From the UHGV virus genome UHGV-0294963: a stretch of DNA of 64,000 bases; one strand, given 5' to 3'. Origin of the DNA: a virus. Below, one piece after another: positions 2,960-52,977 of the stretch (the first letter of the stretch is position 1; each line of letters starts with the position of its first letter). Below the pieces are notes generated by a model. That model did no database searches. It was given only the letters and a program-made list of their open reading frames with translations, and had not been told where the DNA came from. Both the position numbers and the translations under genes were made by a program.

Positions 2960-3000
2960 CATACAAAGTATAACACAAAAAGACACACAGTTACGAAGTT
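2960..3000 (-). promoter_or_regulatory. promoter: AACTTCG - 21 nt - TATACT (with TGn) about 30 nt upstream of the AGGAGG RBS of the 2026..2934 gene
   Basis: Minus-strand reading is AACTTCGTAACTGTGTGTCTTTTTGTGTTATACT. The same architecture recurs at 11 or more other intergenic sites. Confidence 0.5.
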
Positions 3001-3069
3001 ATAAGACACATAGCACGCTACGATTTGCGTGTGGTTTTATAAACCGTACATACAATTACATACAATTAC

Positions 3070-3108
3070 ATGAACACACGCAGCAAACAGAAACGCTGTA
3101 GGTTCTCC
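3070..3108 (-). terminator. rho-independent terminator (12 bp stem, 4 nt loop, then a U-rich tract on the minus strand)
   Basis: aaacgctgtagg-ttct-cctacagcgttt. The transcript continues CUGUUUGCUG. It lies downstream of the tRNA-Met. Confidence 0.45.
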
Positions 3109-3140
3109 TACAGCGTTTGGCAAGATAAACAAACAAGAAG

Positions 3141-3213
3141 GGAGCCTCCTGGGATTCGAACCCAGAACCTCTGGTTATGAGCCAGAAGCTCTAACCAATT
3201 AAGCTAGAGGCCC
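3141..3213 (-). tRNA. tRNA-Met (anticodon CAT; elongator type, or lysidine-modified Ile2)
   Basis: Hand-folded cloverleaf: acceptor GGGCCTC/GAGGCTC, anticodon arm TCTGG-CTCATAA-CCAGA, T-arm CTGGG-TTCGAAT-CCCAG. 73 nt; CCA not encoded. Confidence 0.85.
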
Positions 3214-3318
3214 AATTAGTCTACGCCTCCTACTCTTTTATTCAGTGGCATAGACTGCTACGTTACAGAGTCTAGATATATCGTTTCACTAGATGAGAAC
3301 AGCGTAGCTTAAATCTCA

Positions 3319-3423
3319 TTGGTGCGAAGTCCTGGGTTTGAACCAGGAGGTGAGAAGCCTTATCACGTGGTTATCCCTTCTCGCCACTCTTCGTGGTGCG
3401 TCTTCCTATTCCGCCAACCTCGC
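3319..3423 (-). tRNA. tRNA-like gene, unresolved (about 101 nt plus encoded CCA)
   Basis: Canonical T-arm (CCTGG-TTCAAAC-CCAGG), a 7 bp acceptor pairing (GCGAGGT with ACTTCGC) and an encoded CCA. It is too long for a standard tRNA, and the internal arms (nested GAGAAG...CTTCTC and GTGG...CCAC hairpins) could not be fitted to a cloverleaf by eye. The plus-strand ORF 3319..3537 contains the GFEP signature of a T-loop reverse complement. Confidence 0.35.
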
Positions 3424-49482: not shown

Positions 49483-50641
49483 ACCTGCAGTTACGTCCTT
49501 TACCTATCTCAAGCTGAATTACCTGATGTGAATCCTCCGGATAAGCAATCGACATAACGAATGATGCGTGTATGTTCAAACCATCACCACCGCGAGCAGT
49601 TGATACATCAGGGTTCTGTGACGTATCTGAACCACCCCTGTTCGCCTGCTGAGTCACACCTATAGGACAACCTGTCTCTACGCTAACAGACATCAAGTCT
49701 TCAGCTACATCAGCAGTCGTACTGGTTTCGCTCTTATAAGCCGCATTGATACGCTCATTCTCGACATAAGTAATACCGTCAAGTAGTAACAAATCTAAAT
49801 TAGCAGTTTCAATCCAAGTTCTAAGTTTAGACGGAGTAATATGACCATTAAACTCCTTTCGGGACCTTATCAGAATACCCTCTTTTCCTTGCATTTCTTG
49901 AACGTAGCTGTTATAGGCGTTCATGTCTACAGCATCACCACGACGGAGTGCTGAATTGGAAATGCCTGACAAGAACGTGTCTATACGATAACCGATTGCG
50001 TCTTGACTCATCTCGATGGACGCGATTCCAACACGAAAACCGGCTCTCCAAGCAGCAACTGCTGTATAGATAAGAATCCAAGTCTTACCCATACCCAGTC
50101 TAGCAAGTATCGAGAACAGTTCACCAGATTTAGCCCAACCTCCAATAAGGGCGTCAATTTCAGGAAATCCAGTTGGAATGAACGCATTCGGGTCATTTGC
50201 TGTCTTAAGATACTTTTCTTGTCTATTACCTATCTGCTTAATCGCATCATAATCAGCATGCGTTGGAATTATAGCTCTGAGTTCATTTATCTTATCTTCC
50301 ACCAAACCCATAAGCTGAATACCATCATCTGGAAATCGTTGCTGACCTTCCTCGATTGCTCTAGATAGCTCATTCCATACATAATTCTCTTTAATCTTGT
50401 AAACAAGAAACTCACAGTCCTGAGAAACCTCATTCAGATTAGAACAAGGAAAATTCGGGAACTGTGACATCAGCTCACCTAAAGTTACAGAACCATACTG
50501 AAGATAACGAGTACGAACAAATTCAAGATATCGATAACTTACTCCGAAAAATTTATAGGTACATACATCTTGGTACTCAAAATACTGAATACACTGGTTG
50601 TTCATAACCATATTGATTATGATTTGTTCTGGTACAGTCAT
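49376..50641 (-). CDS. DnaB-like replicative helicase
   Basis: RecA-like domain with Walker A (ARLGMGKT), DnaB-like organisation and a Gly-rich C-terminus. Confidence 0.65.
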   Translation of the reverse strand: MTVPEQIIINMVMNNQCIQYFEYQDVCTYKFFGVSYRYLEFVRTRYLQYGSVTLGELMSQFPNFPCSNLNEVSQDCEFLVYKIKENYVWNELSRAIEEGQQRFPDDGIQLMGLVEDKINELRAIIPTHADYDAIKQIGNRQEKYLKTANDPNAFIPTGFPEIDALIGGWAKSGELFSILARLGMGKTWILIYTAVAAWRAGFRVGIASIEMSQDAIGYRIDTFLSGISNSALRRGDAVDMNAYNSYVQEMQGKEGILIRSRKEFNGHITPSKLRTWIETANLDLLLLDGITYVENERINAAYKSETSTTADVAEDLMSVSVETGCPIGVTQQANRGGSDTSQNPDVSTARGGDGLNIHASFVMSIAYPEDSHQVIQLEIGKGRNCRFGEHFTYTWDPDHGYIQSRGDSGQGGAFFGNAAAG

Positions 50642-50661
50642 CTAAACACCTCCTTCATGAC

Positions 50662-51831
50662 TTAGCCTAACGCGATTAGTACAGACTCCTTGGCACGAGT
50701 TATAGCCGTATAAATCGCCGACTTCTTCATGAAAGAGCACTGCTGATAGATAACGTTCTGCCACTCAGAGCCCTGACTCAGGTGTACAGTAAGTGCGTAT
50801 CCGTATTCAATCTTAGGCGGACGTACTGCTGCAGGAAAAAGTTCAGGACGAGTTGTACCTACGAAACTGAACGTACCTATATCCGGCGTCTCCATAACCA
50901 TATCAACAAGAGAATAGTTATGATTGTTGTGCTTAATCTTGCTGATTACACCTTGAGCACCATTCGTAAGTACAAATCCTTCTGAGGATGTGATGTTCGT
51001 ATTCGTACGGCAAATTACTCTATCGCCTACACTAAGCGGCTTAGACCTCTGTCTAAAGTCTAATGCAAGACTTCTCATTCGGCTGTTTAGCTCAGTTCTA
51101 GAAACATTTGTATCGGTTAAGACAATGTCTGCGTAGCAAAGTTCCTCATCAGAAACCGGTCCCTTACGAACCATACACGAACCATAACTACCTACCTTAA
51201 GTCGTCCTTGAAGAACTTCTTGCGACAGGTATATCACAGGACTACCTTGTGCCTGACGCACAATCTCGGTCAGATAATAATCACAGGTTTTGAACACTGA
51301 TGCGTCATTTACAGGAGGAAGCTGGTTTGGGTCACCCACCAGAAGTGTAGGGATACCGAACGACAACACGTCATTCAGGAGATTACCTCCAACCATACTA
51401 CCCTCATCGATAATAATGCACTTTACTCGGGCATCAAGCTCTTCCTTCAAAATGAAACGAGCTTCATCAGAACCGAAATCCCAACCTCGGTTCATACTCT
51501 GCTCAATAATATTAGCCAGATTCTTAAATTCACTTTCACCTGACGTTTCGAAGTCGATTGCTCCATCCTCAGAATTTTCTGACTGGACGTGATAAATCTG
51601 AGAATGAATTGTACGAGCCGGAAGAGCTGCTTTGATAAGATTGTTCGCAGCTTTACCTGTAGGTGTAATAAGAAGACAATTGTCAACACCGATTGCTTCT
51701 GCAACAAGAGCTATAAGATAACTCTTACCGCTACCTGCGGGCCCTCCGAGCTTAAACACATCAGATTCACGGTTTTCATACCAAGACATAATTCGCTTAT
51801 ACGCAACTTCCTGGCTTGCTGTAAGTGCCAT
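50662..51831 (-). CDS. superfamily I helicase (Dda/RecD-like)
   Basis: GGPAGSGKS Walker A, VGDPNQLPPV motif. 389 aa. Confidence 0.7.
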   Translation of the reverse strand: MALTASQEVAYKRIMSWYENRESDVFKLGGPAGSGKSYLIALVAEAIGVDNCLLITPTGKAANNLIKAALPARTIHSQIYHVQSENSEDGAIDFETSGESEFKNLANIIEQSMNRGWDFGSDEARFILKEELDARVKCIIIDEGSMVGGNLLNDVLSFGIPTLLVGDPNQLPPVNDASVFKTCDYYLTEIVRQAQGSPVIYLSQEVLQGRLKVGSYGSCMVRKGPVSDEELCYADIVLTDTNVSRTELNSRMRSLALDFRQRSKPLSVGDRVICRTNTNITSSEGFVLTNGAQGVISKIKHNNHNYSLVDMVMETPDIGTFSFVGTTRPELFPAAVRPPKIEYGYALTVHLSQGSEWQNVIYQQCSFMKKSAIYTAITRAKESVLIALG

Positions 51832-52382
51832 TAGAATTCCTCCTTTATCTTTGCATCTCTTGCAATTCTATACATAATACTGCCTGCACAATTCAACGGG
51901 TCAGTCATAGACGTCGTTACAACGGTGATACAAGACTTATTCTGCCTAGCATCGTAGATAGCCTGAAGCATCAGGTCATCAATCTGAGTCAGATAAGAAA
52001 ACAGACCGTCAAGTACCAGACAACGAGCTCGAACTGCTCTTTGAACCATAGCCTGAACTGCATTGTCTCTCGCATATCTGTCTTGCGTTCGATTTTGATA
52101 GCACAGCTGATTAACTGAAATGTATAAACCAACGTCCTGAGTGTCAACGATGTATCTACGTGAATTTAGATAAGACATAAGTATAGCAGCTGCATTTGTA
52201 GTCTTACCTCTCTTCAGGCCGCTCAGCAAGACTACACCGTCAAATGTCTGAATATTATTACAGAGCTCGATGATATTCGGACGAATATATTCTTTAGAAA
52301 TGTTATTCATATCCTGAAATTTCTCAGGTACTTCTGCCTTACGCAACAACGTAGGAAACACGTCTACTACTGGATTATTCAT
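51831..52382 (-). CDS. P-loop NTPase (DnaC-like loader or dNMP-kinase-like)
   Basis: Walker A LSGLKRGKTT. 183 aa. Confidence 0.35.
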   Translation of the reverse strand: MNNPVVDVFPTLLRKAEVPEKFQDMNNISKEYIRPNIIELCNNIQTFDGVVLLSGLKRGKTTNAAAILMSYLNSRRYIVDTQDVGLYISVNQLCYQNRTQDRYARDNAVQAMVQRAVRARCLVLDGLFSYLTQIDDLMLQAIYDARQNKSCITVVTTSMTDPLNCAGSIMYRIARDAKIKEEF

Positions 52383-52806
52383 TGTCGTCTAACTCCTCTC
52401 TCAATACTGCAAGCATATCAGGATTATTCTTTGTATCATTCCAATATGGGTCTTGGTAATAAGATATATTCGCATACATCCTATCTTGCTCAGATGTGAA
52501 CACGATGTGATTCCACTTTCTTGCTGTAGCTGTAAGAAACAGATAAGTCAGTTCTGGGATGGTTATCGTGCCTTTAGCAGCAATCTTTCTCACACGAGAC
52601 TGCTTATTAGAATCAGCAATATCATATACCTTAAGCACTTCATCTAGACAAGCATCCCATTCATTTATACTCAACTCCTTATTCTTCTTAACCCTCATTT
52701 CGAGATAACCAGCAGCAGCGTCGAGTAAACTCTGGTCTTTAGGAAACCGACTCAGAACATGCGACCAATAAGGCTGTGGCAGATTATTTCTCATAGTAAT
52801 ACGCAC
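52375..52806 (-). CDS. hypothetical protein (143 aa)
   Basis: ORF coupled to its neighbours. Confidence 0.4.
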   Translation of the reverse strand: MRITMRNNLPQPYWSHVLSRFPKDQSLLDAAAGYLEMRVKKNKELSINEWDACLDEVLKVYDIADSNKQSRVRKIAAKGTITIPELTYLFLTATARKWNHIVFTSEQDRMYANISYYQDPYWNDTKNNPDMLAVLREELDDNE

Positions 52807-52977
52807 CCCTTATGTATAACCTTTATTTTGCTTACGTTGTGCTGTGGTTTTGCGTGTGGAACCATATTATAGCACATACAGTTATTAAACACACAACCAC
52901 GTAGCAAAACCACGCACAAGTGGTGACAATAAATGTCACATTATAATTATATAATAACCGACTAACGATACACGAAG

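Follow-up and report, generated by a model that had tools for sequence, protein, structure and literature searches.

The virus genome UHGV-0294963 was analysed over a stretch of 64 kb (the window), 7.8% of which is intergenic, and the subject here is a set of repeated intergenic cassettes in which a short box, stem-loops and promoters stand together between genes. The minus strand carries nearly all genuine genes of the window, and all elements were therefore read on that strand; a divergent control region lies at ~62200-62880, and a plus-strand gene begins at ~62880. The gene products include NrdD, NrdG, a tape-measure-like protein, baseplate proteins, an endolysin and a holin, as well as helicases, a primase and a clamp loader. 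A megablast search with 20 kb of the window against GenBank phages returned no match, and protein searches gave distant matches only, to Streptomyces, Bacillus and Streptococcus phages; the phage is therefore one without a cultured relative or a literature of its own. Close relatives were found among metagenomic contigs only (111-166 kb, indicating large phages), and these are designated below by L numbers.

A first-pass annotation of the sequence had described five sites at which a box of ~20 nt, often as an inverted pair, recurs beside a stem-loop starting AAACGC, and had read them as terminator-operator-promoter cassettes. The present analysis added a sixth site at 36675-36739, a promoter motif containing AACTTCG and a second family of palindromes (GCTTAAATGC). 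The sites of the first family (A1 to A6) are listed with the predicted terminators (T1 to T3) and promoters (P and a position) that accompany them.

2967-3000, minus strand: predicted promoter P2999, AACTTCG-N21-TATACT with a TGTG extension, upstream of an operon for a MazF-like protein and a sigma factor
3013-3040, minus strand: right box of A1, AACCACACGCAAATCGTAGCGTGC on the coding strand
3075-3082, minus strand: weak partner arm of A1, TGCGTGTG
3091-3118, minus strand: T1, predicted intrinsic terminator hairpin AAACGCTGTAGG-AGAA-CCTACAGCGTTT with the tail CTGTTTG, downstream of tRNA-Met
8828-8861, minus strand: predicted promoter P8860, AACTTCG-N21-TATAAT
8873-8958, minus strand: boxes of A2, with the GT-strand box at 8934-8958 and a variant box, ACAACCACGTGGTATGCTTTAGCGTGC, at 8873-8902
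9014-9047, minus strand: T2, predicted intrinsic terminator of 13 pairs, after the holin gene
25906-25911, minus strand: -10 element TATAAT of the predicted tail-operon promoter, without AACTTCG and with the palindrome TCAATCATTGA in the -35 region
25955-26022, minus strand: palindrome of A3, arms TTTTGCGTGTGGTTGTGT and ACACAACCACACGCAAA, 17 bp perfect, with a 40-nt spacer and the conserved extension TCGTAGCAGCA
26024-26057, minus strand: T3, hairpin AAACGTACAACGG-TTTTGCTA-CTGTTGTGCGTTT with the tail GTTTTG, after nrdG
35527-35652, minus strand: A4, a structured 5' leader with degenerate boxes only (CACACACG variants)
~35531-35560, minus strand: small hairpin of A4, ..GC-GTTA-GCGTGCTA..
35569-35655, minus strand: 5'-terminal hairpin of A4
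35651-35684, minus strand: predicted promoter P35683, beginning at the stop codon of the upstream gene and conserved in relatives
36675-36739, minus strand: A6, the sixth site, a 12-bp perfect inverted repeat AAATGCGTGTGC...GCACACGCATTT
52826-52922, minus strand: palindrome of A5 in a 5' leader, left arm TTGTGCGTGGTTTTGCTACGTGG, right arm CCACACGCAAAACCACAGCACAA
52866-52876, minus strand: -10-like element TGTGCTATAAT in the A5 loop
52923-52939, minus strand: 5'-terminal hairpin GTGACATTTATTGTCAC after P52978
52946-52979, minus strand: predicted promoter P52978

The claim that the box recurs in both orientations was borne out, with matches far above expectation. The 20-mer GCTACGATTTGCGTGTGGTT was exact at 3017-3036 and 25955-25974 and was present with 3 mismatches on the other strand at 8934-8953 (0.00 expected), and the 12-mer ACCACACGCAAA was exact four times, at 3024(-), 8935(+), 25962(-) and 26010(+), with a further copy at 52849(-) carrying 1 mismatch. 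All eight copies of the 8-mer core CACACGCA were intergenic, against 0.6 expected, and a repeat finder independently recovered the relations between the boxes (D8, I3, I5, I7). Resemblance at the chance level in AT-rich intergenic DNA, the objection that the first-pass annotation had set against itself, can draw on the low complexity of GT/CA-rich sequence and on nothing else; it is refuted by these counts and by the conservation of the sites at the same positions in more than 10 relatives, and its probability is negligible. On the sequence, the cassettes are judged to be a real, non-chance regulatory set. Exact-pattern scans of IMG/VR with a 15-mer of the box and with the gapped palindrome returned nearly all chance matches on unrelated contigs and were uninformative.

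Alignment over the sites and their counterparts in relatives showed the box GCTACGATTTGCGTGTGGTT to be one or two copies of a unit of 11-12 nt, TTTTGCGTGTGG, with the variants TTTTGCTGTGG, TTGTGCTGTGG and ATTTGCGTGTGG. Each arm consists of 1-3 tandem units, the number of which differs among relatives, and the period is about one helical turn; in L165, Tandem Repeats Finder gave a period of 11, 2.8 copies and a consensus equal to the unit. A distance of 39-43 nt separates the cores of inverted arms at all sites and in all relatives examined, and the distance from core to -10 element is 51-53 nt at A1 and A3. The arrays are placed upstream of the promoter at A1-A3, around the -10 element and start at A6, and in the 5' leader at A4 and A5. 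At sites 1, 2 and 4 the right arm is followed by a sub-motif, (C)GTTAGCGTGCTA, which makes a small hairpin with a GTTA loop. Of the inverted pairs proposed earlier, that at A3 is a real palindrome with its perfect 17-bp stem, and those at A1 and A2 are poor ones; the box proposed at A4 is present as degenerate variants of CACACACG only.

The promoters at these junctions share a motif of their own, AACTTCG-N20/21-TATAAT. When the coding strand was searched for ACTTCG-N19-22-TATA(A/C)T, 13 copies were found against 0.08 expected, each of which points in the direction of the genes and stands at the head of an operon (minus strand, spanning 2967-62327; sites 2999, 4488, 7784, 8860, 30262, 35683, 36745, 47757, 52978, 56834, 59538, 62239 and 62327). 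The -10 region is of the Gram-positive type, TRTGnTATAAT, and AACTTCG lies at about -40 to -34, where it overlaps a poor -35 hexamer (TCGnnn). A standard sigma-70 scan of the window for TTGACA/TATAAT showed no enrichment, because the -35 element here is non-canonical. Every relative had the motif in the orientation of the genes, even distant ones in which the neighbouring protein is 44% identical, and it occurred in only 2 of ~118 unrelated loci. A literature search on AACTTCG returned nothing relevant. The junction promoters are accordingly predicted to be strong promoters of the host primary-sigma type, in which a phage-specific AACTTCG replaces the canonical -35 hexamer.

The putative promoters of the tail operon (25885-25950) and of the lysis operon (15299-15370), both on the minus strand, lack the canonical AACTTCG, and the lysis-operon site has a one-mismatch variant, ACTACG, only. 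The two share GGTCA..ATTGA-N10-TATAAT, with a small palindrome in the -35 region that reads TCAATCATTGA, or TGTCAACAATGACA in relatives. These two promoters may form a separately regulated late class.

The stem-loop starting AAACGC, which had been assigned to each of the five sites, was found at 3091-3118, 9014-9047 and 26024-26057 and was absent at sites 4 (35520-35660) and 5 (52840-52925). Where present, the hairpins T1-T3 are best read as intrinsic terminators of the upstream unit, as had been proposed: each has a U-rich tail, T1 and T2 were the two best minus-strand terminator calls in positions 1-20000, and the T2 stem covaries. The T1 stem has 12 pairs, 6 of them G-C, and its analogue in L142 has a related stem and a U-tract. 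In T2, the stem covaries in L163, L164 and L167 with the U-tract kept, the compensatory pairs being CTCTTGA/TCAAGAG, CCCTTGG/CAAGGG and CCGCCCTAGG/CTAGGGCGG. T3, with a 13-bp stem and the tail UUUGUUUUG, was not listed by the simple terminator scan; it is nearly invariant in all relatives, L169 included. The idea of the hairpin as a conserved module did not hold, as the terminator stems at sites 1 and 2 of the relative L142 differ in sequence from those of the window; these are therefore ordinary intrinsic terminators and not a module of fixed sequence.

The A sites differ in how far they fold. At A2, relatives carry 2-3 tandem TTTTGCGTGTGG units, and no significant hairpin was obtained in the window or in L142 (z-scores of 0.1 and -0.7) despite the conserved boxes. 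At A3, the arms (25961-25978 and 26005-26022) fold far better than shuffled sequences (z -8), with a compensatory change from GG/CC to GA/TC in L145, L151 and L163; in L169 (72% protein identity) the terminator and box-like pieces were kept and the long hairpin was lost (z +0.3). The 5'-terminal hairpin that follows P52978 at A5 has its arms swapped (GTCAC..GTGAC) in L147-150. At A6, the inverted repeat brackets the -10 element and start site of the predicted promoter P36745 (36713-36746). Its arms were invariant in 10 distinct relatives while the 43-nt spacer diverged, and self-complementarity of the spacer was significant in some lineages only. The left arm lies between the -35 and -10 elements of P36745 and is therefore absent from RNA started there, and only a read-through transcript can form the complete hairpin, with UUUUCU behind it. 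None of the A-type palindromes has a U-tract, and they are not intrinsic terminators.

Palindromes of other sequence were also seen with AACTTCG promoters, in comparable positions, in two distant relatives. In L161 (6456-6536), 26-nt arms around AATCACATC...GATGTGATT, 73% complementary, enclose such a promoter, and in L160 (6288-6333) a perfect 11-bp palindrome, AGCACTCTATT/AATAGAGTGCT, stands between a terminator and the promoter. The arm sequences of both are unrelated to those of the window.

The second palindrome family (GCTTAAATGC), with the arms GGTTTTGCTTAAATGCA and TGCATTTAAGCAAAACC, was found at four further junctions.

15378-15447, minus strand: B1, hairpin GGTTTTGCTTAAATGCA...TGCATTTAAGCAAAACC followed by GTTTATTT, z -7.2, predicted terminator of the tail/baseplate operon
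30274-30345, minus strand: B2, hairpin followed by GTTTATTATG, z -4.8, after folE and upstream of P30262
47775-47834, minus strand: B3, a weaker hairpin, upstream of P47757
~56835-56900, minus strand: B4, a degenerate palindrome between a canonical terminator (56918-56950) and P56834

A U-tract directly follows the B1 hairpin in every relative, and the stem has undergone independent compensatory changes, T-A to G-C in L169 and A-T to C-G in L170; family B is therefore read as long-stem intrinsic terminators. B1 and B2 are taken to be the predicted terminators of the upstream unit. The tail of B2 is kept in all relatives, in place of B1 a more distant relative has a canonical terminator unrelated to it, and B4 is lost or replaced in the closest relative, L146. 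Families A and B share GGTTTTGC and a GGTTGTGTAA-like loop start.

Each junction thus holds a promoter and one or more stem-loops. The composite cassettes very probably mark the boundaries of transcription units in a long co-directional array of minus-strand genes, and the confidence expressed here applies to the cassette, terminator and promoter layer. The earlier view of terminator-operator-promoter cassettes therefore stands for its terminator and promoter parts and for the transcription-unit boundaries; its operator part is plausible, and the proposed order does not apply at sites 4 and 5, where the order is promoter, boxes, gene, with the promoter directly at the stop codon of the gene before it. 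The cassettes partition this large uncultured phage genome into transcription units, which is a known kind of phage architecture.

As for the boxes themselves, we propose that the TTTTGCGTGTGG unit would be a sequence-specific recognition site for a phage-encoded factor. Such a factor would bind beside, over or downstream of the promoters, as at an operator or upstream site, and its binding would adjust promoter use during infection; where the arrays are complementary, a hairpin in read-through RNA would be a secondary effect. Several observations favour recognition as sequence: the A6 arms are fixed though the spacer drifts, the A2 boxes are kept without a hairpin, the core is found in intergenic DNA only, the unit of ~11 nt is iterated, and the A6 palindrome brackets a -10 element. 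In addition, A1-A3 stand behind strong terminators and probably lie in DNA that is little transcribed. The loss of the long A3 hairpin in L169 with box-like pieces retained, the differing number of units among relatives, the A6 left arm that RNA from P36745 lacks, the self-complementarity of the A6 spacer in some lineages only, and the 51-53 nt between core and -10 element at A1 and A3 count on the same side. Reading of the boxes as sequence, most simply by a phage protein on DNA, is put forward tentatively, at a confidence short of even; the composite explanation as a whole, with recognition of the boxes by a factor included, is held with slightly more confidence, and still as the less than even case.

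A number of results weigh against recognition by a DNA-binding factor. The arrays differ from site to site in their spacing and in their placement around the promoter, an unusual variation for one operator geometry. No obvious temporal classes emerge among the genes that follow the A and B sites, and a search of ~60 window proteins with Pfam and PHROGs gave no helix-turn-helix or other regulator, two sigma factors being the only ones found. Folding well beyond that of shuffled sequences was obtained at A3, at A5, at A6 of some lineages and at the L142 counterpart of A1; compensatory changes were seen at the A3 arm and in inner stems; wobble pairs favoured the sense strand by 17 to 6 (the counts are not independent); and the small GC-GTTA-GC hairpin varies through sense-strand G.U pairs alone. 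Family B, finally, clearly works at the RNA level and has the same overall shape as family A.

Part of this evidence speaks for a rival in which the palindromes act as RNA. Imperfect hairpins of ~65-80 nt in read-through or leader transcripts would attenuate, insulate, or serve processing or stability, either in the manner of RNase III sites (T7, SP82) or as 5'-terminal stabilisers, and the likeness of the boxes would come only from duplication and homogenisation of the cassettes. The z-scores point this way at A3 (-8), the A1 region (-4), A5 (-2.6), B1 (-7.2) and B2 (-4.8), as well as at A6 in L002 and L003 (about -4) and at the L142 analogue of A1, which reached -3.9 with different arm sequences. 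So do the compensatory changes at A3, at B1 (two independent) and in the 5' hairpin of A5, the excess of sense-strand G.U over A.C pairs, the position of A4 and A5 within 5' leaders, and the finding that a distant relative has, in comparable positions, palindromes whose arms differ. The read-through-only hairpin of A6, with UUUUCU behind it, would be a promoter nested in a terminator.

The sites are, however, uneven in this respect. No significant hairpin was obtained at A2 in the window or L142, at A4 as a whole (z -0.9), at A3 in L143, L154 and L169, or at A6 in L001, and the arms never vary where covariation could show; RNAalifold on B2, A6 and A5 was uninformative on covariation because their outer stems never vary. 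The A-type palindromes lack a U-tract, A1-A3 stand directly behind efficient-looking terminators, and neither the iteration of the unit nor a core confined to intergenic DNA is needed for a purely structural role. On balance an action as RNA is unlikely, although it is the rival to which we give the most weight.

Known RNA sites of this kind bear on the comparison. The RNase III hairpins of T7 (R0.3 to R18.5) and of the early mRNA of Bacillus phage SP82 are conserved, long, imperfect intergenic hairpins of lytic phages; like the elements described here, they often stand just after a promoter, and paralogous sites share sequence. In the window, by contrast, several sites are without a stable hairpin, three lie behind terminators, and one straddles a transcription start. 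Imperfect double-stranded RNA of ~20 bp or more was predicted at A3, A5, B1 and B2, at A6 of some lineages and at the L142 counterpart of A1, and not at A2, A4 as a whole, A3 of L143, L154 and L169, and A6 of L001. T1-T3, B1 and B2 are, for their part, like ordinary intrinsic terminators in their G+C-rich stems and U-tracts, their place at operon ends and their compensatory changes in relatives (T2, B1); what sets family B apart is the unusual length of its stems, the sequence common to its arms and the structured loops of 36-38 nt.

The two sigma factors raise a further alternative. Both are of the sigma-70 family.

1440-2078, minus strand: phage sigma factor 1, 212 aa, part of the operon that follows cassette A1
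41736-42347, minus strand: phage sigma factor 2, 203 aa

Sigma factor 1 has ~30% identity to a sigma factor of SPO1-like Okubovirus phages.

The repeat families might hold hairpin-nested promoters for these two sigmas (middle and late), the left arm serving as -35 and a TGTGTAA/TGTTATA-like element in the loop as -10. Besides the two sigma genes, GCTTAA-N17-GT(A/G)(T/C)A(A/T) at four of four family-B sites (which are probably homologous), TTGTGTA in the B2 loop (unchanged in six relatives, unlike its flanks), the presence in every palindrome of a TG-extended -10-like element near the start of the spacer, the conserved TGTTATAAT in the A5 loop, and tail and lysis operons without canonical AACTTCG are all in keeping with this. 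Family A, however, has no bipartite motif of fixed spacing, antisense transcripts would start from inverted copies, B1 and B2 already have an explanation as terminators, and the patterns were found post hoc among sites that are probably homologous. We regard this proposal as improbable.

A wider variant, which would be a regulatory design not described before, would have the promoters nested in sequence-specific hairpins, so that read-through RNA folds and stops and RNA started inside escapes. Both families (TTTTGCGTGTGG and GCTTAAATGC) would then be read by the two phage sigmas or by a partner protein, and AACTTCG would be the site of a sigma-appropriation factor, like the T4 MotA box. This is also improbable, if marginally less so.

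Other promoter and site types were tried and set aside. An extracytoplasmic function (ECF)-type promoter reading of the right-hand box, AAC-N16/17-CGTGC, matched at one site only, and TAGCGTGC was not enriched. A link to the SPO1 late -35 element (CGTTAGA versus CGTTAGC) was dropped, as no -10 element is conserved at the right distance. DnaA boxes, sigma-54, LytTR, Rho utilisation sites, replication origins and miniature inverted-repeat transposable elements were set aside for mismatched geometry or for want of an available test.

Among described systems, the closest analogue of the cassettes is the promoter-early stem-loop (PeSL) cassette of T4-type phages (Arbiol et al. 2010, PMC2839356; Comeau et al. 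2014, PMC4122927). This repeated intergenic unit joins a strong host-sigma promoter to a stem-loop by which transcription from upstream is terminated or attenuated. The PeSL stem-loop may precede the promoter, overlap with it or follow its -10 element (PMC2839356). Both are small repeated intergenic cassettes with a strong promoter consensus inside and a terminating stem-loop, and in both the position of the stem-loop varies; in the window it comes before the promoter at A1-A3 and B1-B4, spans the -10 element at A6, and comes after the promoter at A4 and A5. The differences are several. The present phage is of an unrelated lineage with a Gram-positive-like host; its -35 element is the non-canonical AACTTCG, whereas PeSLs have a consensus promoter with an AT-rich upstream element; and its stems are long palindromes of an 11-12 nt unit, in contrast to the polyG/polyC stems of PeSLs. 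PeSLs flank clusters of orphan genes and hyperplastic regions, whereas the cassettes here flank core operons (replication, tail, lysis, nucleotide metabolism, queuosine), and no cassette-mediated shuffling was seen. By this analogy we consider the cassettes PeSL-like in their presumed working but outside the PeSL family.

Homology patches for modular recombination, as proposed for PeSLs, would be another explanation, in which the boxes have no regulatory role of their own and are leftovers of cassette duplication or products of concerted evolution. Cassettes are indeed found repeatedly where modules meet, the elements change readily in evolution (L146 is without B4, and unit number varies), and PeSL cassettes are equally varied in the position of the stem-loop relative to the promoter (PMC2839356). 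Yet in 10 relatives that differ by 6-18% in the neighbouring proteins, the arms show no more variation than the -10 and -35 elements do, and functionless sequence should drift as the spacers do. No break in gene order was seen at any cassette; six relatives are collinear with the window from B2 to A3, and the insertions and deletions observed are not at cassettes. A role as leftovers is doubtful to the same degree as that of promoters for the two phage sigmas.

For recognition of the boxes by a phage protein, repeated regulator sites are described as stoperators in mycobacteriophages of Cluster A (PMC9283540, PMC6550527), and Cluster O mycobacteriophages have a 17-bp palindrome, TGTTCGGNNNCCGAACA (PMC4351075). 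Such sites are short, repeated, mostly intergenic and invariant in sequence, and are thought or shown to bind a phage protein, which is the likeness to the boxes. They are also single and compact (13-17 bp) with ~30 copies, and differ in this from wide inverted repeats of 11-12 nt units with a 39-43 nt spacer at six sites in 64 kb.

For a lineage of large phages that is uncultured and known from metagenomes alone, the analysis provides a near-complete predicted map of the transcription units over 64 kb, with 13 promoters, at least 6 terminators and 10 palindromic elements. The signature AACTTCG-N20/21-TATAAT is specific to the clade and may be used for annotating relatives or building expression parts, and the manner in which the TTTTGCGTGTGG unit acts, by protein binding or by RNA structure, has become a testable question. 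Phages were already known to have repeated regulatory cassettes, and the conceptual advance is therefore modest, unless the reading with nested promoters or that with two sigmas is true.

Several other features of the window were recorded. A full set of 7-deazaguanine/queuosine genes is present on the minus strand at 30356-35410 and 59557-60570 and comprises FolE, a QueE-like radical SAM protein, QueD, QueC, QueF, a QueA-like protein and a YhhQ/Vut_1-like transporter, with a TGT/DpdA-like transglycosylase in addition. This gene set suggests that the phage modifies its own DNA or tRNA. The leader of the YhhQ-like gene (35411-35500, minus strand) contains a tandem repeat, ACAGTGAGTA(G/A)..CCCC(C)T, with hardly any variation among relatives. 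No riboswitch was matched by Rfam in this leader in the window or in distant relatives, and the repeat could be an undescribed riboswitch linked to preQ0/preQ1.

In a scan of the window with Rfam 15, tRNAs alone reached the gathering threshold, and sub-threshold matches were chance-level hairpins only (site 4). Amid the tRNA genes lie long non-coding stretches (3214-3526, 6321-6902 and 6980-7586, minus strand), each of which has a tRNA-like T-arm/acceptor, at or near the 3' end in two. At least the stretch at 3214-3526 is conserved in L142, and a sub-threshold tRNA was seen at 6727-6801 (28.3 bits against a cut-off of 29). The stretches could be tRNAs with large insertions or unknown RNAs. An insertion of ~1 kb was also found within nrdD of L159 (19411-20405), corresponding to position ~27500 of the window, which is without it; this may be an intron or a homing-endonuclease insertion.

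Three minus-strand genes are candidates for counter-defence or host takeover. These encode a protein with a NADAR domain (111-548), a 302-aa protein with a MazF/PemK-like toxin domain (2026-2934), and a Tad2-like (anti-Thoeris) domain (5856-6320).

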